This document shows, piece after piece, positions 4,501 through 56,426 of a stretch of 64,000 nt of DNA (its first letter is position 1; the number at the start of each line of letters is the position of its first letter). Position numbers and translations under genes: made by a program. The notes under the pieces were generated by a model. The model ran no database searches. It had not been told where the DNA came from and saw only the letters and a list, made by a program, of their open reading frames with translations. The DNA comes from Verrucomicrobiota bacterium (GTDB taxonomy: Bacteria > Verrucomicrobiota > Kiritimatiellia > UBA8416 > JBHORK01): assembly GCA_042565725.1 (NCBI GenBank), contig JBHORK010000004.1, positions 2,750 through 66,749 of the forward strand, given 5' to 3'.

Positions 4501-5020
4501 CGGCAACGCGGTTTCGGTTGCCGGCAATACTATTGATCTGGATGTAAATAATGTTCCCGTTGTTAATAACTGGTTTTCAAATACAACGGCTACAGGGAAG
4601 AAATACGCGATTCTTGATGAAGCCCAGTACAGGACCATTGTCCAGGCAAACGCGGCATTGTCCGGTGAGAGTCTTGATTCGGAGCGCATGGAAAAGAAGG
4701 AAGTAATACTCGGAACACCCAATGGTGTTAACGGCATCAACTTTACATTATCTGATGCGGACAATGATGCTAATGGATTGTTGATTGAAGGGAGCGAGAT
4801 CAATATTTCGCATGACCAGTATTACGCTGTTGCTGATGGTAAGAAAGTTTCGGTTTTAAAGGCAGGCGAGCTGCATAACTGGCAGGAAGAAGGAAGCGAT
4901 ATAAACATGGAGGTAAGCATTCCTTACAAGCTGGATATTCCGCAGGCAGGTGTTCGGGTTTGTTTTGAAAAAACACTTTTGTCGGCCGGTGAATCACCGG
5001 ATATAGAAATTGGATTTTAG
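1541..5020 (+). CDS. Large membrane-anchored protein of unknown function (beta-sandwich repeats, TPR-like and coiled-coil insert); paralogue of 5542-7506
   Basis: Long ORF; likely start ATG 1541 (MNSGIKTKR) after AGGAAGG. N-terminal hydrophobic helix. Shares motifs with the next gene (YRIRNNNKQFLRVKMP vs YNVRNHRNQFLRIELP; FPVEIVY; C-terminal EKTLL/EKILV). Confidence 0.8.
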   Translation: MNSGIKTKRVAKLIIALSICFVLFFGIKIFREYFYGDPDAPYYIVPEEWHAFLSVTDEKTNVDLQWNLDVLKIDPGHVAMVQLFPIGTVFREVKMNEEDVLPVKRSGWFCVEIKRPGTYSVSAGVDVHTEEKENVSSVKFKKPFFINSVIHVDSDDVLEFAVDDAVGSVTGDEEGTHGAIHVGLLRDLTVTWRALRERVEQVGIPSIKPSIAWTVSDSTISANALLDVTIMGGSSEMVSMILPFGADRVDVRSGVMRDWRKTGDRLDIYFTEKVSGQFKISLSFDIPRTGDVAECSMFKVEGGRLDAGGWMLAVNDTSGLMLENNIAGLQAATDLDVPADVISLVKGKPLFFYRVLNRNAGPVFDVVTKKPFPVVDTIADRLDIFTVVHNGGEEISRLSYRIRNNNKQFLRVKMPEEFRLIYVEVDNERCSISEEDGVLLVPLVRSIQTMGGLVPFPVEIVYCRQGMTISNGDKFRLDLPELPEVPVAHVTARVFYPGEMSINSYRSSLTRVDKLSIEDAVSFRDAPLIVTNAAYDVSGWVNDAWVYNNYQVGYDAYRKNDLESAEQYFRKTQLLSPQGAPISKTTKDLLGNLMVGRGEIKGKDKLEKAKMLSIKGQLASDVDDIQTQQGKLIQVGLANLKEGDEELGAELLREAEDLGKEISRRGGSALRQKAVSRTYERQLQDIEDQRRYNRDLNKKLEKLQKQAQTVLANAPNDKGEKARSFAQGVIVAAEEENVSLTEMPVADIAWSDKSAKKNYSKRAEASQVRGRFARSGKSSWRSDIKKRSKNESLKEKNKELRKKVSILDRALSVMNSDTANKPVQIDSLSVRKSVASLKDDVADAKSRFQELASGSAGVNDYMNAEKELSMLEQKAQGGKVSFGALDDTVQQELSELEEEVKGLKNKIAGQRAAQEKQDVIEINIGKIVNTDNPNATKAFKQFMGTNYWGSQLDQSGFWIDGQNLVVTNACNIPAEFNQVVEKIADNRGNAVSVAGNTIDLDVNNVPVVNNWFSNTTATGKKYAILDEAQYRTIVQANAALSGESLDSERMEKKEVILGTPNGVNGINFTLSDADNDANGLLIEGSEINISHDQYYAVADGKKVSVLKAGELHNWQEEGSDINMEVSIPYKLDIPQAGVRVCFEKTLLSAGESPDIEIGF

Positions 5021-5067
5021 CAAAGGTAGTGGAATAAAATGCATGAAAAAATGAAGAGAAGAAGAAA

Positions 5068-5400
5068 ACCACGGAGGTCACAGAGATACGGAGAAGAAAT
5101 AGAGGAGGTTGCATGAATTTGGCGCAGATATTGCATCCTCTAAATATTAAATTGCACGTATATATAGAAATATCTGCGCCAAATTCATGCAACGATTGAT
5201 GCCTGGAGAAAGGCGGAGGGAAAATAAGATATGATTAAAAGTATGTATTATGTAAGGGATGCTGATGTTTTTTCGGTCTTTTTTTCTGCCTCCTCTTTAC
5301 AACCCGTTGCGGAATTTTCTGTCCGGATACTTCCGGCAGAAAATAACGCAACACTCTTTTCTTTTTTATCTCTTCTCCGTGACTCCGTGTTCTCCGTGGT
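5068..5400. repeat. Intergenic element bounded by 30-bp imperfect inverted repeats built from 9-mer CACGGAGnn units
   Basis: 5068-5097 ACCACGGAGGTCACAGAGATACGGAGAAGA vs the reverse complement of 5371-5400, ACCACGGAGAACACGGAGTCACGGAGAAGA (25/30 identical). Confidence 0.8.
5108..5193. repeat. 86-bp MITE-like element with a perfect 25-bp inverted repeat
   Basis: GTTGCATGAATTTGGCGCAGATATT (5108-5132) is the exact reverse complement of 5169-5193, with a 36-nt AT-rich spacer. Confidence 0.85.
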
Positions 5401-5541
5401 TAAATCTTTTAAAGAACGTGGAGGGTGGGTTTTAAAAGAGGGACAAGGGTGGTTCTTGCGTAACATGTTCCAGGACATGATGTTCTGCAGATGACAGAAT
5501 GGAATTCGTTGCAAAACGTTAACACAATAAAGGAGGTAGTC

Positions 5542-7506
5542 ATGAACGAGGAACGTAAAGAAGAAGAGCTGGTGCCGCAGGATGAAGAGATTCAACCGGA
5601 GGCAGAACAAATTGAAGAGACAGAACAAGTTGAAAAGGTAGAAGAAGTAACGGATGAGGATGAGAATAAAGAAGGGCCTGTAGCAGAAGAAATGACGACA
5701 GAATTGCAGGCTGAAGAAAAGCCGGTTGAAAAAAAGCCGCGCAAGCCGAGAGGTTCTGTTTTTCCGTGGCTGATGATGATTGTCATGATGGCGGCTGTTG
5801 TATCGGGATTCTGGTACACAAAAGAATATTGGCTGAGCTTGTTGAACCCCGCTCCATGGGATGCGCCTTATATAATAACAGCAACGGAGTATGACGGAAC
5901 AGAGGTAAGCGAAGAAGGCGCAAACTTCAAGGCCACGTATCATATAGATATAGAAAGCAAGGATACGTGGAAAAAGATACCTTTAATTCCTGCAACTGTT
6001 GCGATTATTGATTCGGACCTTCCTTCTGACGCGTATTTGGTATTGTCAGATGGGCATTACACTATGCTTACACGTAAGAATGGGAAAATAGATGTTTCTA
6101 TAACATTTTCTGTTGCAGTCTCTGAAGTTGGGTCGGGACACAAAGTAGCTTTTGCGAGGGTGCCTTCGGTCACATGCGTTTTAGAGGCAATACTGCCGGA
6201 AGAAGGGCTTGATATAAAGGTTACAGGCGCGCAGTCAACGGATATAAAACCTGAGAATGGTACCACAAGCGTGTCCGCGGCACTGCCGGATGGAACGCCT
6301 ATAGAATTGGCATGGGAAAAAGCAATCCCTGAACTGCCTGAGGGACCTTCTCAGTTTCATAGTTATACAAAAACCCTGATATCGGTTGCTGAAGGCATAG
6401 TGCATGGTGAAACAAGAATAGATTTCAGTATTCTTCATACACCTACGTATGTGCTGGAACTTAATGTGCCTGAAAACGTGAGTGTTCTGGAAGTTACTGG
6501 TGCGGATATAAGGGACTGGCGTCTTGAAAATGAAAAGATGACTGTGCATTTTGAGAAAGAAGTTATCGGGCTATATAACATGAACATAAAATACGAAATG
6601 CCCGCTAACGTTGAAGGAGGCAAGATTAACGTTCCGATGATAACAGGTTCCGGTGTTAAGAGCGAAAAAGGTGAGATAGGCATTGTTGCGCTTACCAATA
6701 TTGAGATCAAGAACGGCGAAGTTTCTAACGCGCATCTTATAGATGTTAAGGATCTTCCTTCCGATATAATAGGCATGACATCTCAACCCGTTCTGCTGGC
6801 GTATCGTTACGCGAACCCTGAGTTTGATGTGACTCTGGATGTTAACAAGCCGAACGATGTTGACGTATTGCTTGCTATAATTGACAGAGCGAACGTTACT
6901 ATCATGCAGACTCTTGATGGAAAGCGCGTAACACGCGCTGTATACAATGTGAGAAACCACAGGAACCAGTTCCTGAGAATAGAGCTTCCTGAAGGAGCTG
7001 AGCTCTGGAGCGCATCTGTTGCCGGCAGGGTCAGTCAGCCGGTAAAAGATGAAAGCGGCAGAATACTTTTGCCCCTTGTCCGCTCACAGGGCGGCAGCAG
7101 GATGTCGGCATTTCCAGTCGAAATCGTCTATGCCGAGGAAGGTGAAAAGCCTGATGAGCGCGGGCGTGGTATCGCAAAGGTAACACTGCCTTCATGCAGT
7201 GAACCGATAATGCATCTTATGGTTTCGCTGTATGTTCCTGAACAGGGAAAGTATGATGATTTTGAAGGAACGATGCATAAGGTGGAGAACTTCTCTGCTG
7301 TCAGGCGCGAGGTGCCTGTGCGGGTTATAAATAATGTCAATCAGATGCGGCAGGTAGCTATTCGGAAGCCTGTTCCGGGCGGTAACGGGCGCACGGATAT
7401 TGATGTTCAGATTCCTTTAAGCGGTAAATCCTTTTTACTGGAAAAGATTCTTGTTATAAAAGATCAACAGTGGTTTTCTTATAGTTATAGGAACCTTGAT
7501 AAATAG
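5542..7506 (+). CDS. Membrane-anchored protein of unknown function; shorter paralogue of 1541-5020
   Basis: AGGAGG RBS at 5531-5536 before ATG 5542. Acidic N-tail, one TM helix (FPWLMMIVMMAAVVSGFWY), then beta-rich domains shared with the upstream gene. Confidence 0.85.
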   Translation: MNEERKEEELVPQDEEIQPEAEQIEETEQVEKVEEVTDEDENKEGPVAEEMTTELQAEEKPVEKKPRKPRGSVFPWLMMIVMMAAVVSGFWYTKEYWLSLLNPAPWDAPYIITATEYDGTEVSEEGANFKATYHIDIESKDTWKKIPLIPATVAIIDSDLPSDAYLVLSDGHYTMLTRKNGKIDVSITFSVAVSEVGSGHKVAFARVPSVTCVLEAILPEEGLDIKVTGAQSTDIKPENGTTSVSAALPDGTPIELAWEKAIPELPEGPSQFHSYTKTLISVAEGIVHGETRIDFSILHTPTYVLELNVPENVSVLEVTGADIRDWRLENEKMTVHFEKEVIGLYNMNIKYEMPANVEGGKINVPMITGSGVKSEKGEIGIVALTNIEIKNGEVSNAHLIDVKDLPSDIIGMTSQPVLLAYRYANPEFDVTLDVNKPNDVDVLLAIIDRANVTIMQTLDGKRVTRAVYNVRNHRNQFLRIELPEGAELWSASVAGRVSQPVKDESGRILLPLVRSQGGSRMSAFPVEIVYAEEGEKPDERGRGIAKVTLPSCSEPIMHLMVSLYVPEQGKYDDFEGTMHKVENFSAVRREVPVRVINNVNQMRQVAIRKPVPGGNGRTDIDVQIPLSGKSFLLEKILVIKDQQWFSYSYRNLDK

Positions 7507-7590
7507 TCGACACTGAGCAGAATGGTATTGTTCAAATGTTAAGACCTGGCAATCTTATGTGTTTCAGTGCATAGGGAAATGAGGTTTAAG

Positions 7591-7633
7591 AATTGAATAT
7601 CCAATATCCAACAAGGAATATCCAACATCCAAG
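7591..7633 (+). repeat. Heptamer-periodic ATATCCA array with CCAACAAGGAA core
   Basis: AATTGAATATCCAATATCCAACAAGGAATATCCAACATCCAAGG. The 25-mer 7601-7625 is identical to 8569-8593. Confidence 0.85.
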
Positions 7634-7788
7634 GAGGGAAGCAGTGAGTGCTGTCAATATCTTGTGCTGCAGGTGCTTGCAAGGTTCTCTTTTGATAGTA
7701 TGAATATTCGTGATACAGAGGTTCAGTCATTAGCTTTTGAATGAAATTAAGAAATGTTTCAACGCCGACTAATAAAGGAATTATTGAA

Positions 7789-8496
7789 ATGGCAAAGCGT
7801 ACTATACTTGTTGTTGAAGATGATGCATCGATCAGAAGAGGCATTGTTGACGCGCTTCAGTTCGCGGAATATAACGTGATAGAAGCTGATAATGGCAATG
7901 ACGGCATGCGTATGGCGGTTCGGGGCGGATATGATCTGCTCCTTCTTGACCTGGTTTTACCCGGGCCGGGCGGGTTGGAAATACTTGCTGAAGTACGCAC
8001 TTCTCGACCGACGCTTCCCGTGATTATACTTACCGCTAAAGGCGCTGAATCCGACCGTGTCAAAGGCTTGAAACTTGGCGCGGATGATTACGTTGCCAAG
8101 CCGTTCAGTGTAAAGGAGCTTATGGCTCGGATAGAAGCAGTTATGCGGCGTTCACCGGAAAGGCCTGTTGACTTGAATGAGGTGGTTTTTAATGGGGGAG
8201 TCGCCGATCTGAAACGCGCTGAAATAAGATTCAAGAATGGAGACCGCGCGGAATTGTCCGAACGCGAGATGGAGCTGTTACGTTATCTTGCGGGGAACAG
8301 GGGCAGGGCGATTTCAAGAGAAGAAATACTCAGGCGTGTTTGGCGTATTGATCCGGACAGAATAGAAACCCGCACCATAGATATGCATATAGCGCGGCTA
8401 AGAGAAAAACTCGGAGATGATTCTGACAAACCGCATATCCTTTGCACGGTACGGGGTAAGGGATATATGTTTATGCCGTTAAAGAGTAAAAAATGA
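7789..8496 (+). CDS. OmpR/PhoB-family response regulator
   Basis: Receiver domain (ILVVEDD, LLLLDLVLP, ILTAK, DDYVAKPF) plus winged helix (RTIDMHIARLREKL, TVRGKGY). Likely start ATG 7789. Confidence 0.95.
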   Translation: MAKRTILVVEDDASIRRGIVDALQFAEYNVIEADNGNDGMRMAVRGGYDLLLLDLVLPGPGGLEILAEVRTSRPTLPVIILTAKGAESDRVKGLKLGADDYVAKPFSVKELMARIEAVMRRSPERPVDLNEVVFNGGVADLKRAEIRFKNGDRAELSEREMELLRYLAGNRGRAISREEILRRVWRIDPDRIETRTIDMHIARLREKLGDDSDKPHILCTVRGKGYMFMPLKSKK

Positions 8497-30550: not shown

Positions 30551-30853
30551 GAGAATGATAAATTATAAATTATGAATGATGAATCAGAAAAGAAATCCTA
30601 AGCACCCGCCTTCGCGCAAGGCTACGGTGAGGCAGGCTAAACTCTAAATTCTAAACAATCCGCCGTCGCCAAGGCTATGGCGGGACAAGATTCCAATGAT
30701 TTAAATTCAAATGTTCAAAACGCAGAAAGTGCTCTGGAATGCACATTTGCAAGTATTGGCGCCGAATGTCTTGATCATTTGAACATTAGAATTTAGAATT
30801 TGTTTAGGATTTTCCGCCACAGGCGGATCAGCCGTGGTTGAAGATATTAGAAT
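30551..30853. repeat. Composite intergenic repeat region (heptamer arrays plus REP-like hairpins)
   Basis: GATAAAT/GATGAAT units, CTAAATT units, hairpins at 30606-30636 and 30660-30689, inverted TTAGAAT units, and TTCCGCCACAGGCGGATC (also at ~53401). Confidence 0.8.
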
Positions 30854-33292: not shown

Positions 33293-34228
33293 ATGGAGTA
33301 TCTTGTAACAGGCGGGGCGGGTTTTATTGGTTCTAATATTGTTCACACTCTTGTTAAAGACGGAAAATCTGTGAGAGTATTAGATAATCTTTATACCGGC
33401 AAACTGAATAATATTAGTGAAATCCTGACTGATATTGATTTTATGGAAGGCGATATCAGGGATGAGGCTTCTGTACGTAAGGCTGTTGATGGAGTTAAAA
33501 ACGTTTTGCATCTGGCAGCTTTGCCATCGGTAATAAGATCAGTCGAAGATCCTTTGAAATCCAACGATATCAATATGCTTGGAACTTTGAGAATGTTGAT
33601 TGCCAGTCGTGACGCAGGTGTTGACAGATTTGTTTTTTCTTCTTCATCTTCGGTTTACGGGGACACACCTACTTTGCCTAAGCATGAGGATATGGCTCCT
33701 ACTCCGCTATCTCCGTATGCTGTTCAAAAGTTGTCAGGAGAATTCTATTGCAGGATGTTTTATAAACTCTACGGTCTAAAAACTTTTTCGCTGAGGTATT
33801 TTAATATATTCGGGCCGAGACAGGATCCGTCTTCTCAGTATTCCGGAGTAATATCTTTGTTTGTTGAAGCTCTTAAAAATAATACACAACCGACCATTTA
33901 TGGTGACGGCGGGCAGACTCGAGATTTCACGTTTGTTGATGATGTTGTTCGGGCGAATTTATGTTGCTGTGACGCGTCGGAGAACGCGGCAGGGGATGTG
34001 TACAATGTTGCTCGCGGCGGAAGAGTTTCTATCAATGATCTTTTCTTTGCATTGGCCCGGATTATGAAGAAGGATATGAAGCCTGTTTACAGTGATCCGC
34101 GCGCAGGTGATGTGCGTGATTCGAAGGGTGATACCGGCAGGGCTCAAAAGGCGTTAAACTGGAAATCGGAAGTTGAGTTTGAGGAAGGCCTGAAGAGAAC
34201 GGTAGCGTACATTTTAAATGATGAATGA
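33293..34228 (+). CDS. NAD-dependent NDP-sugar epimerase/dehydratase (extended SDR)
   Basis: LVTGGAGFIGS, SSSSVYG, SPYAVQK (YxxxK), RYFNIFGPRQD and QTRDFTFV. Confidence 0.95.
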   Translation: MEYLVTGGAGFIGSNIVHTLVKDGKSVRVLDNLYTGKLNNISEILTDIDFMEGDIRDEASVRKAVDGVKNVLHLAALPSVIRSVEDPLKSNDINMLGTLRMLIASRDAGVDRFVFSSSSSVYGDTPTLPKHEDMAPTPLSPYAVQKLSGEFYCRMFYKLYGLKTFSLRYFNIFGPRQDPSSQYSGVISLFVEALKNNTQPTIYGDGGQTRDFTFVDDVVRANLCCCDASENAAGDVYNVARGGRVSINDLFFALARIMKKDMKPVYSDPRAGDVRDSKGDTGRAQKALNWKSEVEFEEGLKRTVAYILNDE

Positions 34229-34278
34229 TAAGTGATAAATGATGAATTAGTAAGGGTTGATAAATCCAGGTTTTATAA

Positions 34279-36651
34279 ATGACGCAGAAAGAAGCAAAGC
34301 GTTCCGCAATCCGCAATCCGCAATCCGCAATCCGCAATTCATATGATCCTTTACTATATGGCGGCAATCAGGACACAGGCCTTGTTGCTGTTGAACATGT
34401 CGAGAAGAAGACATCTGATCAGATCGTTTTGTTCTTTAGAGAGAACGATAAAATAATAGAGAAACAAGAGTCTTTCAATCCGTTTATTGCAGTTAATGCG
34501 GATGTTATTGCTGATTGCCCTCTTGAATTTAAATCAAAAAAGCTTAAGGGCCGCGGTCGGCTGAATCTCCTTGCCCTGTTTTCGTCTTGGAAAGACTTTC
34601 TTAAAGCAAAATCCTGGCTAACCAAAGAAACCGGATTTGCGCCCAGTGCGCCCGGTGCCCCGTTTTTATGTGTTAATGATCCGGTTCAGCAATACCTTAT
34701 GTTATCAGGCAGGACTCTCTTTCTGGGTATGGAGCTCGAGGATCTCAGGCGCATGCAGGTGGATATCGAATGTTTTACAACAGAGGGATATGAGTTCTGT
34801 AATGCTGAACGTGAAGGTGACAAAATAATAGCAATTGCGTTTGGTGATCAAACGGGATGGACAAAGGTTTTATCAGGAGGTGAACTGAGCGAAAAGGAAT
34901 TGCTGGAACAATTCGTAGCCATTATACAGGAACGCGACCCGGATGTTATAGAAGGCCATAATGTTTTCAACTTTGATCTTCGATATATAGCGAAACGTGC
35001 TAAGCGGCATGGCGTAAAACTGGCTGTAGGTAGGAATAGCGGTATGCCCGTATGGCGTCCCAGCAGGTTCAACGTTGGTGAGCGTACGATTTCGTATCAA
35101 CGCTGCAATATTTTCGGCAGGCATATAATTGATACGCTCTTTCTTACTCAGGCATATGATATTACACATCGTTCACTTAATGGGTATGGATTAAAAGAAG
35201 TTGCGATTCATTTCGGGCTGGCTCCTCGGAATCGTACTTATATTGAAGGTTCGAAAATCAGTAAAGAATTCGATCGAAATCCTGAAAAGGTAATGAAATA
35301 CGTTTGTGACGATATCAAAGAGACGCGTAAATTAAGTGAATTGCTCTCTCAGAGCGCTTTTATACAAACGCAAATGCTGCCGTATTCGTACCAGAATGCC
35401 TGTATCAGGGGGAACGCCACAAAGATCGACGCATTGATGATCAGGGAATATCTCAGGAAAGAACATTCCCTGCCTTTGCCTGATATAGCGCGTGAGTTTG
35501 CCGGCGGTTATACTGATATGTTTATCGAAGGGATAATTGAGAATGTTCATCATTGTGATGTTCGTTCTCTTTACCCGTCGCTGATGCTTACTCAGAAACT
35601 TGTTCCGAAAAGTGACAAGCTGGGTGTTTTTGAAGCGCTGTTAAGTAATCTTCGGGAATTTCGTATTAATGCCAAAGAAAGAATGCAGAAAAGTTCAACG
35701 GAATCGAAAAAAACATACTTTGATGCGCTTCAGGCAACTTTCAAAGTTCTGATTAACTCGTTTTACGGGTATCTTGGTTTCTCGCAGGCGCGCTTCAGTG
35801 ATTTTAAAGCCGCAGAGCAAGTCACAGCAGAAGGTCGGTCACTTCTTCAGTCCATGATAAAATGGATGCGGAAACATGGTGCAGAACCAATAGAAATTGA
35901 TACGGACGGGATCTACTTTGTTCCGCCGGGACAAAGTGACGCGGCGAAACGGCGAAGCGGGGACGCGGCGAAAGGGAATAAGAGTGAAGCGGGGAAACGG
36001 GTCCCGCAGTGGCGGGATCTCCGCTCCGCTCCGAGAAGCGGCGAGATAGAGAAGTTCAGGGAGGAATTTGCGAAGTTTCTGCCGGAGGGGATTGAAATAG
36101 AATTTGATGGTGAATATGAATCCATGTACAGCTATAAAATGAAGAATTATGCTCTGCTGACATATGATGGTGAAGTGATTATAAAGGGCGCGGCGTTAAA
36201 ATCGAGGGGATTGGAACCGTTTCAAAGGTCTTTCTTAAAGGAAGTAATTAAGTTGAAACTCGAAGGAAACGAAGAAAAGATTCCGCGATTGAAAAGTGAA
36301 TATGAAAAGGCCATAAGGAACAGGGAGTGGTCAATAGAAAAACTTGCAAAAACTGAGAATCTGCAGGACGCTCCATCAACCTACGCGGCCAAGCGCGCAC
36401 AGGGTAAGAGTTCGAGACGTGCTGTATATGAGCTGGCCTTGCGGTCCGGGCGTGATTATAAGGCAGGTGATCAGATATCCTATTATGTTACGGGTGAGAA
36501 AAAGAGTGTGGCTGTACATGAGAATTCGAAACTTGTTTCGGATTGGAACCCGAAGAAAAGAGATGAGAATGTTGTTTACTACTTAGCCAAGTTGGATGCA
36601 TTATATAAGAAATTTGGCGGGGAGGATATGCAGGGGAGATTGAATATATGA
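34279..36651 (+). CDS. polB: Family B DNA polymerase (Pol II-like) with a 3'-5' exonuclease domain
   Basis: Exo I DIECF, Exo II GHNVFNFD, Exo III YVCDD; polymerase motifs DVRSLYPS, KVLINSFYGY and EIDTDG. Confidence 0.93.
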   Translation: MTQKEAKRSAIRNPQSAIRNSYDPLLYGGNQDTGLVAVEHVEKKTSDQIVLFFRENDKIIEKQESFNPFIAVNADVIADCPLEFKSKKLKGRGRLNLLALFSSWKDFLKAKSWLTKETGFAPSAPGAPFLCVNDPVQQYLMLSGRTLFLGMELEDLRRMQVDIECFTTEGYEFCNAEREGDKIIAIAFGDQTGWTKVLSGGELSEKELLEQFVAIIQERDPDVIEGHNVFNFDLRYIAKRAKRHGVKLAVGRNSGMPVWRPSRFNVGERTISYQRCNIFGRHIIDTLFLTQAYDITHRSLNGYGLKEVAIHFGLAPRNRTYIEGSKISKEFDRNPEKVMKYVCDDIKETRKLSELLSQSAFIQTQMLPYSYQNACIRGNATKIDALMIREYLRKEHSLPLPDIAREFAGGYTDMFIEGIIENVHHCDVRSLYPSLMLTQKLVPKSDKLGVFEALLSNLREFRINAKERMQKSSTESKKTYFDALQATFKVLINSFYGYLGFSQARFSDFKAAEQVTAEGRSLLQSMIKWMRKHGAEPIEIDTDGIYFVPPGQSDAAKRRSGDAAKGNKSEAGKRVPQWRDLRSAPRSGEIEKFREEFAKFLPEGIEIEFDGEYESMYSYKMKNYALLTYDGEVIIKGAALKSRGLEPFQRSFLKEVIKLKLEGNEEKIPRLKSEYEKAIRNREWSIEKLAKTENLQDAPSTYAAKRAQGKSSRRAVYELALRSGRDYKAGDQISYYVTGEKKSVAVHENSKLVSDWNPKKRDENVVYYLAKLDALYKKFGGEDMQGRLNI
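34303..34337 (+). repeat. Perfect (TCCGCAA)5 tandem repeat within the polB 5' end
   Basis: Five exact 7-nt units, read in frame as SAIRNPQSAIRN. Confidence 0.95.
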
Positions 36652-44488: not shown

Positions 44489-44640
44489 ACCTCCGTCGCC
44501 AAGGCTATGGAGGTCAAGAGGCCAGACCCCGTCTCGCCCAAATGTGCTTTTAATTGTTTTGCTGCCTGATCATTTTACAAATCTTTCTTTCATCTGTTTA
44601 AATCTGTTTTATCTAGTCCCGCATTGCGGGACGGGTGGGC
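44489..44640. repeat. Cluster of REP-like elements between the IMPase gene and smc
   Basis: CAAG-tailed hairpin 44489-44518; CCAGACCCCGTCTCGCCC (an inverted copy lies at ~53382-53399); copy 2 of the glmS 3' element at 44592-44640. Confidence 0.8.
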
Positions 44641-44651
44641 ATAGTCCTTTT

Positions 44652-47600
44652 TCAGCTGGCGGCTACCGGTTCAGGTTCCTCATGGTCCTTGAATTTCATT
44701 GATACAATACTGGAGATTCCTTTTTCATGCATTGTAACGCCGTACAGAATACTTGCCGCCGCTATGGTCTGGCGATTGTGGGTAATGACTACGAACTGAG
44801 ATTGTTTGACAAATTCCTGGAGTACGGTTGCAAAACGTCCGATATTGGTATCATCAAGAGCCGCGTCCAACTCATCGAGCAGACAGAATGGGCTGGGTTT
44901 GATCATGTAAATGGCAAACAGCAGCGCTACAGCTGTAAGGGTTCGTTCACCTCCAGAAAGAAGGGTAATGTTTTGAAGACGTTTTCCGGGTGGACGTGCA
45001 ATTATTTCGATTCCGCATTCCAGGACATCTTCTTCGTTAACCAGGACAAGTTTTGCGGAACCGCCGTTAAAGAGTTTTTTGAACATTATCTGGAAATTTT
45101 CGTTAACCTTAGCAAAAGTTATGCGGAACATTTCTGAAGTTGTTCTGTTGATCTTACGAATCATCTCAAGAAGCTGTTCTTTGGCTTTTATAAGGTCTGC
45201 TTCCTGGTGGGTTAAGAAAGAATGTCGTTCTTCAAGTTCTTCGTGTTCTTCAATAGCAACCAGGTTGACCGGGCCCATGGCTTCTATTTTTGTGCGAAGC
45301 TCCTCGATATTGGTTTCAAGTGCTTCCATCGGAGGTTTTCCGTCTTTCCAGTCGGGGTCCGGTTCGTTCATTACCTTTTCCAGAGTTGTGCTGTATTCAG
45401 AGGCAATTCTGTCGAGCTGGTTCTGACGCTTCATGGTGTTTTCGTGGAGCTTTAGATCATCTTCTGCTCTTTTATCTTTAAGTTCATCGGCTAAAGCCCT
45501 CTTGCTCGTCAGCATTTTTTCCATTTCTTCAAGTTCTTCGCTCTGCTTCTTCCTGTTTTTGTCCAGGCTTTCCGATTTTTCTGTGTTAACTTCTATTTCC
45601 TTCTGAAGTTCGATCAGTTGCTCTTCTGCGTTTTTAATTGATTCCTGGAATTGTTCAATGCTGCTTCTGTATGACACGATTTCTTGTGAACGGGTTTGGA
45701 CAAGGGTTTCGAATTCTTTTAAATGAGCCTCTCCTGATTGACGGCGGTTTTCCAGGTGTTCAGCTTCATGTCGAAGCTGGGTAAACTTTATGCTCTGTTC
45801 AGTGACACGGGATTGAAGACTTGAATATTTGCTTTCGAGTTCATTGATGGCAGAAGTTTTTTCTTCTATTATCTTTGAAGTTTTTTCGCGTTTAGATTGT
45901 GCAGCTTCAATTTCTTCTGTAATAGATGTTCTTTTCTGCTCCGCCGAATCATCTTCCTTGGTGATATTGTTAAGTTCCCATGTGACGGTATTTAATCGGT
46001 CTTTTGCCTGGTCGGCTTCCCTGGATACGATTTGGGTTTCACCTTCTTTGACTGCAAGAGCGTGTTTTTGTTCATCCAGACTTGATGTGGCTTTATCAAG
46101 GGAATTCTGAAGAGAGGATGTTTTTGAGAGCAAAACTTTGAGTTTATTCTCGTTGTCCTCAATCTGGTTCTCCAGGCTGGAGGATTCTTTTTCGAGATCG
46201 CTCAGTAGGTATTTACGGGCCATCGGGGTGTTTGCATGTGCGTCAGTCGGCCGGAATTCGAGACAGCCGTCTCCGCGGATGATTGATCCTTCACGGGTAA
46301 CATATGTTTTCCCTGCAGGAAGAGGATCAGGAACTAAGGCAAGTGAATCAGCCACAAAAACGTTTCCCAGCAGTCGGCGTATTACCGGCATTATCGATTC
46401 CGGGCACTTTACATGGTCGGACAGTCTGACGCCTGTTGTTTCGGTCTTGCCTAAAGATCCTGGTTCGTTGGAAGTATTTACAGCTATAAGTCGGGCGGAG
46501 CCTTTTTTGTTAGACTCCAATTTTCGCAGTATTTCGATAGCACTTACAGTGTCTGAAACAAGTACAGCGTCGAGCCATAAAAAGAGAACTGCGTCCAATG
46601 CCGTTCTGTACTCGGGTTTTACATCAATATGAGATACAAGAGAGCCCATCAGCTTATCTTTATTTATATTCAGAGGATTATCTTCGTTTAATAAAAGGCT
46701 GGTGTTTTCGCGGGACTGTTCGCCTGAAGTCTCATTATCGCGAAGAATGTCAATTTGCGCTTTCTTGCCGGCTGACTCAGATTGAAGTTTTGCGCAGTTT
46801 TCCTGGAGGATTCTGGTCTCTAGTTCTTTCTCTGATTTCTGCTGTTTCAATTCATTGCATTGGTTGATGTAAGTCTTTGACTGTTCTTTAAGATCGTTAA
46901 GCTCGTGATGCATTTCGGATTGCCGCTTTTCGTAGCCTTTTGCGACACGCTGCAATTGAGCTTGTTCGGCAAATAGACGTTCTTTGCGAATGGTGTCAGA
47001 ACGTTCGTGAAGATCAACCTGTGCGAGTTGATTCTGAAGTTTATAGTGACCGCTTTCCAGTTCAACCAGATCTGCGCGAAGTTCGTGAATCTCGTTTCGT
47101 GTTGTCTCAAGCAATTGTTGATGAGTGGCCAGGTTATCATTGCAAATCTTCAGTTCGTGTTCAGCTTCGTCTTTTTCGGGAGAAATTTTATTGAGCCGGG
47201 CGACAAGTTCGGTCAGGCTTTTCTTCTGGCTTTCAATTTGTTGATGTGCTTTCTCGGCCTCCATTGAATCGCGCTGTGATAATTTGCCGTATTCCTCAAT
47301 TCGTTGATGATTTACGCGGATAAGTTCACGTGTATGCTCAAGTTTGCTTCGTGCGGAAAAGCTTTTTTCGAGAAAGGATGTTTTTTCTGAATCGGTCTGC
47401 TGGATGCTTTTGCGAAGAATCAAGTTACCTTGCTCAAGATCCTGTGTTTCCGTCTTGGCAGTATTGAGTTGGTCGTTAAGATTGGATATTCGGGATTGGA
47501 GTTCGCTGATTTCCCGATCCAGCGATTTCAGCCGTTCCTTTGTTGTATGGATATCGAGTTGGCGCAGTTCGTCACGGAGCGTTTTGAAGCGTCGAGCTTT

Positions 47601-48230
47601 ACCTGCCTGTCTTTGCAATGAACCAATCTGGCGTTTGACTTCACGAATCACATCGGCAAGGCGCAAAAGATTAGCTTCGGTATGTTCGAGTTTTCTGATG
47701 GTTTCTTTTTTGTCTGCTTTGAATTTTGTTATCCCGCTGGCCTCTTCGAAAATTGTGCGGCGGTCCTCAGGGCGCGAACTTAGAATTTGGTCTATTCGTC
47801 CCTGTTCCATAACAGAATATGAGGTAGTGCCGATACCGGTATCCATAAACATACGCTGGACATCTTTCAGGCGGCAGGGTGTTTTGTTTATAAAGTATTG
47901 GCCTTCTCCGGACTTAAAAACGCGGCGGCTTATTGTCACTTCGTTGTATTCGATGCCGAGTGATTTTTCACAGTCGGCAAAAGTAATGTTGACTTCGGCC
48001 ATGCCGAGCGGCTTTCGTTCGTCAGTGCCGTTGAAAATGCAATCTTCCATTTTTGAGCCGCGCAGGGCTTTGGGTCTTTGTTCCCCGAGAACCCAGCGAA
48101 CAGCATCGGAAATATTGCTTTTACCACAGCCGTTAGGGCCGACAATACAGGTCATTCCGGGTTCGAATTTGAGAATGGTTTTCCCCGCAAAGCTTTTAAA
48201 GCCGACTATTTCCAGTGTTTTAAGGTACAC
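44652..48230 (-). CDS. smc: Chromosome segregation protein SMC
   Basis: GFKSF, Walker A GPNGCGKSN, long coiled coils with a hinge, LSGGE signature and LLDELDAALD Walker B/D-loop. Confidence 0.97.
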   Translation of the reverse strand: MYLKTLEIVGFKSFAGKTILKFEPGMTCIVGPNGCGKSNISDAVRWVLGEQRPKALRGSKMEDCIFNGTDERKPLGMAEVNITFADCEKSLGIEYNEVTISRRVFKSGEGQYFINKTPCRLKDVQRMFMDTGIGTTSYSVMEQGRIDQILSSRPEDRRTIFEEASGITKFKADKKETIRKLEHTEANLLRLADVIREVKRQIGSLQRQAGKARRFKTLRDELRQLDIHTTKERLKSLDREISELQSRISNLNDQLNTAKTETQDLEQGNLILRKSIQQTDSEKTSFLEKSFSARSKLEHTRELIRVNHQRIEEYGKLSQRDSMEAEKAHQQIESQKKSLTELVARLNKISPEKDEAEHELKICNDNLATHQQLLETTRNEIHELRADLVELESGHYKLQNQLAQVDLHERSDTIRKERLFAEQAQLQRVAKGYEKRQSEMHHELNDLKEQSKTYINQCNELKQQKSEKELETRILQENCAKLQSESAGKKAQIDILRDNETSGEQSRENTSLLLNEDNPLNINKDKLMGSLVSHIDVKPEYRTALDAVLFLWLDAVLVSDTVSAIEILRKLESNKKGSARLIAVNTSNEPGSLGKTETTGVRLSDHVKCPESIMPVIRRLLGNVFVADSLALVPDPLPAGKTYVTREGSIIRGDGCLEFRPTDAHANTPMARKYLLSDLEKESSSLENQIEDNENKLKVLLSKTSSLQNSLDKATSSLDEQKHALAVKEGETQIVSREADQAKDRLNTVTWELNNITKEDDSAEQKRTSITEEIEAAQSKREKTSKIIEEKTSAINELESKYSSLQSRVTEQSIKFTQLRHEAEHLENRRQSGEAHLKEFETLVQTRSQEIVSYRSSIEQFQESIKNAEEQLIELQKEIEVNTEKSESLDKNRKKQSEELEEMEKMLTSKRALADELKDKRAEDDLKLHENTMKRQNQLDRIASEYSTTLEKVMNEPDPDWKDGKPPMEALETNIEELRTKIEAMGPVNLVAIEEHEELEERHSFLTHQEADLIKAKEQLLEMIRKINRTTSEMFRITFAKVNENFQIMFKKLFNGGSAKLVLVNEEDVLECGIEIIARPPGKRLQNITLLSGGERTLTAVALLFAIYMIKPSPFCLLDELDAALDDTNIGRFATVLQEFVKQSQFVVITHNRQTIAAASILYGVTMHEKGISSIVSMKFKDHEEPEPVAAS

Positions 48231-56226: not shown

Positions 56227-56426
56227 AACTCGTGCAATAAGCAGGTTAATCCGGCACAGCCGGAAATAACGAATGACCCCGCCATTTGGCGGGACAAGCG
56301 AAATACCCAAATCCGAAGCCCAAATGACAAATTAGCAAGCCAGGGAGATCGCAGAGAGTTTGAATGAGATTATGTGAAAGATTCTGTTCATCGCAAACAA
56401 AATACGCTTCACGAGATACGCAAATA

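Follow-up and report, generated by a model that had tools for sequence, protein, structure and literature searches.

Introduction

The conversion of non-coding repeat DNA into protein has been documented mainly in Rickettsia. There, as summarised in PMC10969869, the Rickettsia palindromic elements (RPEs) of Ogata et al. (2000/2002) are discrete units of ~100–150 bp in which both the sequence and the encoded peptide are conserved. Other small repeats with some likeness to the case described here are the STRR heptanucleotide repeats of cyanobacteria and the LSSR, with units of 5–11 nt (Mrazek et al. 2007, as covered in PMC4679880), as well as the MITEs and the REP/RAYT elements (ERIC, BOX, Nezha and others), small non-coding repeats which can give in-frame fusions (PMC10969869, PMC3733652). 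Here we analyse a 64,000-nt stretch from an uncultured Verrucomicrobiota bacterium of the Kiritimatiellia (assembly GCA_042565725.1, contig JBHORK010000004.1, positions 2,750 to 66,749; hereafter the window), in which polB, the gene of a family B DNA polymerase, carries an in-frame insert made of short repeats. The 2.96-Mb assembly under study is named G000, and coordinates are window positions unless a contig label (C..) is given.

Like the RPEs, the repeats of G000 are dispersed and capable of forming hairpins; they lie in intergenic DNA as well as in frame within unrelated housekeeping genes, where they add peptide segments at positions that the protein fold can accommodate. They form a multi-copy family within one genome (48 arrays and 31 hairpins, against ~0 in controls), and hairpin potential is present in one part of the PolB insert, Module B below. 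The insert differs from an RPE in being a mosaic of 8-nt arrays and a 16-nt hairpin with no fixed unit, and its sequence is unrelated to RPEs. The Rickettsia analogy drawn in the initial annotation of the window therefore holds for the outcome and fails for the element, which lacks a fixed-length unit, a full-length second copy, a conserved peptide and a target-site duplication.

With the STRR and LSSR the genome shares many dispersed short arrays (3–6 copies) of 7–8-nt units, in several families and mostly intergenic. It departs from them in that essential enzymes here carry such arrays as in-frame coding sequence, whereas non-triplet repeat units are rare in coding regions according to the STRR/LSSR literature covered in PMC4679880, and in that its octamers are degenerate in a patterned way instead of being near-identical slippage copies. 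The insert belongs to neither class, since it is not a discrete conserved element and its units are not slippage-identical. MITEs differ from it by their terminal inverted repeats and target-site duplications, both missing here. As in REP/RAYT systems, G000 encodes Y1 (RAYT-like) transposases, one of them with its own REP array; however, the insert has no GTAG/CGTC foot, and its hairpin lacks the CTTG/CAAG foot of most intergenic copies. As an example of junk-like repeats turned into protein, the PolB insert is clear, though it has precedents. It indicates that, in an environmental bacterium, enzymes central to replication and biosynthesis can take up stop-free non-coding repeat DNA as protein sequence, and it adds that one loop of PolB is a recurrent landing site across lineages.

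Repeat DNA within polB

The polB gene of G000 contains, downstream of its catalytic motif C, ~111 nt of the genome's own dispersed repeat DNA: an octamer array, a second short array, and a hairpin set in a palindrome. The features concerned are the following.

34279..36651, plus strand: polB, family B DNA polymerase of archaeal-type fold, 790 aa (Pfam PF00136, DNA_pol_B, and PF03104, DNA_pol_B_exo1)
35899..35910, plus strand: motif C, codons D541-T542-D543-G544 (sequence, translation and orthologue alignment)
35935..36045, plus strand: whole repeat-derived insert, 111 nt, codons S553–E589 (37 codons), delimited by composition, orthologue alignments and the predicted local distance difference test (pLDDT)
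35935..35977, plus strand: Module A, an AGT leader followed by five octamers, GACGCGGC GAAACGGC GAAGCGGG GACGCGGC GAAAGGGA (sequence and array scans)
35982..36031, plus strand: Module B, a 50-nt imperfect palindrome with left arm AGT + GAAGCGGG GAAACGGG and right arm TCTCCGCTCCGCTC (DNA fold)
36002..36017, plus strand: core mini-hairpin TCCCGC-AGTG-GCGGGA, one of 31 genome copies (contig C148:38751)
36036..36043, plus strand: closing unit GAAGCGGC, out of phase, at the right-hand end of the insert (read from sequence)

The insert stands out from the rest of the gene by its composition, with a GC content of 67% (43% in the remainder of polB) and 68% purines (55%). It is free of stop codons in five of the six frames and encodes 10 K/R against 5 D/E, which makes it basic (+5). 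The first four octamers, GACGCGGC GAAACGGC GAAGCGGG GACGCGGC, occupy 35938–35969; next come GAAAGGGA, an 8-nt spacer and, at 35986–36001, two in-phase units. The leader of Module A, (A/G)AGTGAC, is common to many intergenic octamer copies. Module B folds as DNA with an energy of −15 kcal/mol (z = −2.55; 4 of 200 shuffles were as good), and its helix also appears in the RNA centroid fold; folded as RNA, the insert region as a whole is unexceptional (z = −1.0).

Much of this had been read correctly from the letters in the initial annotation: its translation of the insert, SDAAKRRSGDAAKGNKSEAGKRVPQWRDLRSAPRSGE, and the position of the hairpin at 36002–36017 are exact, and the frame is indeed preserved, with the catalytic motifs intact and both flanks collinear with those of orthologues. 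Repeat DNA does fill the region it delimited (35932–36050, ~40 codons), with bounds that we correct to 35935–36045 and 37 codons. The insert was also thought to follow DTDG directly, when it actually starts nine residues past D543.

A second insertion of repeats in the same polymerase had been proposed as well, and it was recovered in the N-terminal extension, which orthologues do not have.

34303..34337, plus strand: (TCCGCAA)x5, a perfect heptamer tract translated as SAIRNPQSAIRN (pLDDT 43–53; absent from orthologues)

Orthologue matches start at PolB residues 16–26, and the N-termini of orthologues are 10–20 aa shorter. Another heptamer-type tract, TGATGAA TGATAAG TGATAAA TGATGAA, lies directly upstream of the polB start at 34220–34262, so that short-unit arrays of two kinds bracket the 5' end of the gene.

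The loop after motif C

In order to compare the insertion site among orthologues, the segment from DTDGxY to the IEFDG strand was measured in 112 of them. It spans 25–26 residues in 55 and 31–32 in 23, with a scatter up to 52. In G000 it reaches 58 residues, the longest of the set, a net gain of ~32 codons over the modal orthologue. The long loops of orthologues cannot be aligned with one another, and none of the 112 has an equally long loop that aligns with that of G000. In the alignment with Pfu PolB, 33 query residues are skipped between Pfu positions 553 and 554.

We then placed the insert on an AlphaFold model of PolB (mean pLDDT 90.5; predicted template-modelling score, pTM, 0.89), as the initial annotation had proposed. 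It lies between the strand 544–548, which follows the motif-C hairpin, and the palm helix 587–600. Over residues 551–590 pLDDT takes values of 64, 44, 44 and 68, against 89–95 in the flanks; the insert is, in this model, a surface loop predicted to be disordered. An alignment of 97 sequences, which includes the PolB of G000 itself, shows that the post-motif-C loop is the sole internal region of low occupancy with many (10) independent long insertions. The remaining length-variable regions are the two termini.

The enzyme around the loop is conserved. All exonuclease and polymerase motif residues are kept, and D162/E164, N228/F232/D233, Y341/D345, D427/SLYPS, K489/NSFYG and D541-T-D543-G are invariant in the 97-sequence alignment. 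Among solved structures, the archaeal Pfu/KOD/9N enzymes are nearest in both sequence and fold, and the model superimposes on KOD, 9N and Pab PolB with TM values of 0.70–0.75. The source names of related proteins assign this PolB to Kiritimatiellia.

We consider it probable (about 0.8) that stop-free repeat DNA of the genome is tolerated, in frame, in this permissive surface loop as a roughly neutral passenger. A piece of repeat DNA with a length that is a multiple of three would be read straight through and would add a basic (+5) loop of ~32–37 residues. As far as the sequence can tell, the segment would be translated and roughly neutral, and it would persist because the post-motif-C loop is the one internal site in the PolB family that tolerates extra length.

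The charge of the insert invites a different explanation, namely that the basic loop was kept because it helps the polymerase, for example by an extra contact with DNA or with a partner protein near the palm. Besides the 10 K/R against 5 D/E of the insert itself, the loops longer than 20 aa are net positive in eight of nine orthologues (mean +2.4), while the 95 short loops, most of them acidic, average −0.6, and the site has been used repeatedly among orthologues. However, the long loops have no common sequence, the segment is predicted to be disordered, most orthologues lack a long loop altogether, and the same arrays occur in unrelated enzymes and linkers. Moreover, purine-rich repeat DNA read in the sense direction yields K/R/G/E regardless of selection. 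We thus hold an adaptive loop to be unlikely. A PolB loop that accepts 20–37 extra residues in many lineages could serve as a site at which to equip PolB enzymes with engineered tags or insertions.

Repeat families of the genome

The octamers of the insert belong to a genome-wide family. The pattern GA[N][ACG][CG]GG[CGT], in at least three tandem units, occurs in 48 arrays of the assembly and in none of five shuffled genomes, so that the 8-nt units first noticed in polB are present beyond chance. A looser pattern, GANNCGGN x3, matches 86 windows, whereas the reversed-pattern control matches 1; since 37 of 40 related genomes lack the looser pattern, the octamer family is specific to this lineage. 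Probing the genome with the insert by BLAST matched ~30 other loci. The skeleton of the unit has five fixed positions (G1, A2, C5, G6, G7), with positions 3, 4 and 8 variable.

The mini-hairpin constitutes a separate family. TCCCGC-N3-5-GCGGGA was found in 31 copies against 0 for a single scrambled control of equal stem length. Its 5-nt core, CCCGC-N3-6-GCGGG, occurs 78 times, against 2 and 6 for two 5-nt controls of the same composition; a third 5-nt control, CCGCC...GGCGG, occurs 70 times, being one of the repeat stems of G000. Most copies of the mini-hairpin are placed between short-unit arrays. Two intergenic relatives had been named, at 44616 and 56278. The first is among the 31 copies, and the second, at 56279, is a looser variant.

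44617..44633, plus strand: intergenic hairpin relative GTCCCGC-ATT-GCGGGAC, given for comparison, one of the 31 copies

Only 10–11 of the 48 octamer arrays lie deep inside long open reading frames (ORFs), about half of the 44% expected for random positions, and this deficit indicates that the family is mainly intergenic. The description of the insert as intergenic-type repeat DNA is thus borne out, with two families that are mostly outside long ORFs. Stop codons are absent from 268 of the 288 array frames, and intergenic arrays lie in sense orientation behind a co-directional gene in 22 cases against 8. Tandem Repeats Finder called 637 period-7 and 247 period-8 arrays in G000 (overlapping calls unmerged), and under strict criteria 56 of 117 heptamer arrays are inside long ORFs. 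No gene was found associated with the octamer arrays, and no inverted GAnnCGGn pairs were found within 1.5 kb in G000. A phase-variable contingency repeat was rejected for the octamers, since their units are heterogeneous.

Origin of the insert

The composition of the arrays bears on how the repeat DNA came to be in polB. Slippage is the classical explanation of short-unit repeats (Mrazek 2007, as related in PMC4679880), and the array could in principle have grown in place from a chance octamer, with no import of DNA; this would fit the missing target-site duplication and full-length donor copy, and the N-terminal (TCCGCAA)x5 is perfect, as slippage predicts. In contrast, the four to five octamers of the insert are each unlike their neighbour, and genome-wide only 14% of adjacent pairs are identical, against 8% expected at random. 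The units in PolB also fit the genome-wide skeleton GA--CGG-, and next to the first array the insert contains another one that begins with an identical AGT leader, as well as the hairpin of a separate family. Growth in place is, in our view, quite improbable. The heterogeneous units, the adjoining second repeat family and the leader shared with intergenic copies favour import over slippage, and the tolerated segment would then have arrived as pre-formed repeat DNA, via template switching, illegitimate recombination or some mobilising activity.

With five fixed and three free positions, differing neighbours and a sense bias, the octamers look more like a periodic recognition site than like a product of slippage. 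Their patterning, their restriction to one lineage and their preference for the sense strand hint at some agent that reads or writes them.

We also considered that the segment might be an artefact of assembly, or that it might be excised before the mature protein is made, as an intron, an intein or by translational bypass. Metagenome assemblies are often broken or wrongly joined at repeats, and octamer arrays do stand at the ends of several G000 contigs. The insert, however, is exactly in frame, lies within an 80-kb contig, is bordered on each side by sequence collinear with orthologues, and has similar in-frame counterparts in at least seven other genes. As for removal, the insert has no Rfam match that would indicate a structured RNA, and no terminator; its 37 residues are far below intein size and have no Cys/Ser/Thr...His-Asn ends, so that an intein, intron or bypass element was rejected. 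Either a chimeric assembly or an excised segment seems very hard to reconcile with these data.

Several observations weigh against a neutral passenger of repeat origin. The net-basic long loops in eight of nine orthologues could reflect selection for function over mere tolerance. The long PolB loops of two other genomes, G004 and G026, have no further copies in their own genomes, which means that not every long PolB loop is demonstrably repeat DNA. At the insert ends no target-site duplication and no terminal inverted repeats were found (a shared flank of 4 nt, AAGT, is compatible with chance), and BLAST of the genome returned no second full-length copy, only partial matches of 13–38 nt; we infer the insertion solely from composition and family membership. 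Finally, the best relative of this PolB among 5.8 billion proteins searched is only 65–67% identical, and an exact-flank search of metagenome contigs gave no same-species allele of the insert site, so that the comparison of sequences would offer neither a true empty allele nor a date for the insertion.

The same loop in other lineages

At least two other lineages carry repeats of their own genome in the post-motif-C loop. In G029 the loop DNA (G029:C122:27777-27866) is an inverted repeat, perfect over 27 nt, and its arms are found again at ~12 further loci of that genome. The PolB of assembly GCA_964495975.1 shares 83% identity with the G029 protein. Its insert occupies the same site, in the loop ~90 nt after the DTDG codons, and is a perfect 28-nt inverted repeat with the arm GACTTAGGACTTAAC. 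The two inserts have their outer ends in common, GGGGTCAGCCCTT...AAGGGCTGACCCC, and differ in their inner arms, which are built from heptamers (AAGTTAA-AAGATAA in G029 and GACTTAG-GACTTAA in GCA_964495975.1). Since both are perfect inverted repeats (27–28 nt), the six differences between them are mirrored in both arms. Further, the PolB loop of G013 (G013:C107:11334-11357) holds in frame a 24-nt motif, CCGCCGNCGCCAAGGCTATGGCGG, of which there are 8 copies in G013, whose family is not that of G000, 32 in G000 and 0 in controls. In the window, this hairpin motif is found at 30660–30683 and 44490–44513.

Because the inserts of G029 and GCA_964495975.1 share their ends and differ in their arms, and because the arms of G029 match copies in the same genome, the post-motif-C loop may be a recurrent target, in which array-type palindromes would be repeatedly installed or overwritten, with the frame kept, by an undescribed copying process that keeps the elements of each genome uniform. 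This proposal is tentative, and we would sooner doubt it than accept it. Short-unit repeat families are widespread yet poorly understood, and the PolB loop with its counterparts in relatives offers a compact test case.

A group of tandem paralogues of ~1100 aa in G000 provides a further instance of arrays at fixed positions. These paralogues, encoded at C11 (e.g. 44669-48164), C66 (e.g. 4984-8329) and C130 (e.g. a minus-strand ORF at ~10680), have what appears by eye to be a beta-propeller region, and each has heptamer-array peptides in two places that are constant across the group, ~aa 150 and ~aa 650. The unit differs among them (NPKSEIRNPKS, TPQSAIRNPQS, HRTSNIEHPT and others). Different arrays at the same positions are compatible with a recurrent target.

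In-frame arrays in other genes

The wider claim of the initial annotation, that the repeats of this genome generate protein insertions, was sustained by in-frame copies in IspH, in an OppD-like ATPase, in a MurC-MurB linker and in other genes. IspH, an essential isoprenoid enzyme, has a 31-aa insert with respect to the Aquifex structure 3dnf (C126:19443-19466 and flanks), formed by a GAATATCC-type heptamer array and an octamer array. The OppD-like ATPase (C190:4561-4599) shows a 17-aa octamer-array insert relative to 8j5q, ahead of a C-terminal Cys-rich segment. In the MurC-MurB linker (C117:25614-25731), a CAGGAGT heptamer array adjoins an octamer array. The repeats were rejected as the cause of the MurC-MurB fusion itself, which is ancestral in the order, with open frames of 786–939 aa in 11 of 12 relatives; the twelfth match is in a short frame of 177 aa. 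More octamer copies were found in a LipB-like/LipA-like frame, an ankyrin-FGE protein, a glycosyltransferase-TPR protein and a 1714-aa protein, all named by reading their translations.

In eight of ~10 octamer arrays inside ORFs the purine-rich strand is read, which gives hydrophilic peptides of D/E/K/R/G/A/S/T. Across genes, these peptides are cyclic variants with no single conserved segment. The pyrimidine-rich strand is read in the LipB-like/LipA-like frame (C188:4680-6312, a minus-strand ORF), where LipB-like and LipA-like sequences, so named from the translation, occur in one frame and the octamer array at their junction encodes PVSPRHRVTAS.

Neighbourhood of polB and other repeat-associated genes

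On one side of polB lie an LptD-like gene and an epimerase gene, and on the other a GspG pseudopilin gene. The order LptD-PolB-GspG is also found at the orthologue locus of another assembly, and this conserved neighbourhood indicates that polB is a chromosomal gene. It is present in 35 of 40 related genomes of the order.

We also looked at repeat-associated genes elsewhere in G000. Six genes for PF05635 (23S rRNA intervening-sequence protein) are each bracketed by inverted arrays of 6–8-nt units, the unit being specific to each gene.

C118:25268-25579, C126:61558-61791, C77:27001-27312, C177:3293-3595, C182:4469-4774 and C182:8594-8896: PF05635 genes (inverted arrays)

Module B resembles these cassettes in that it pairs an array with an imperfect inverted partner. 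A link between the octamers and the cassettes was nevertheless rejected, since the cassettes are built from other units and octamer arrays do not pair in inverted orientation within 1.5 kb. A REP/RAYT origin of the insert was likewise rejected, because the REP beside the RAYT-like gene at C177 differs in sequence; GGGGTCAG-type palindromes are rare in G000. That gene (C177:5609-6098) encodes a RAYT-like Y1 transposase of 163 aa and is followed within 400 nt downstream by five tandem REP-like units (CCGACGTCAGCGCCGTCGGCTACAG). Finally, two Y1 proteins of ~350 aa, at C164 and C122, are flanked by GGGGTCA...TGACCCC inverted repeats.

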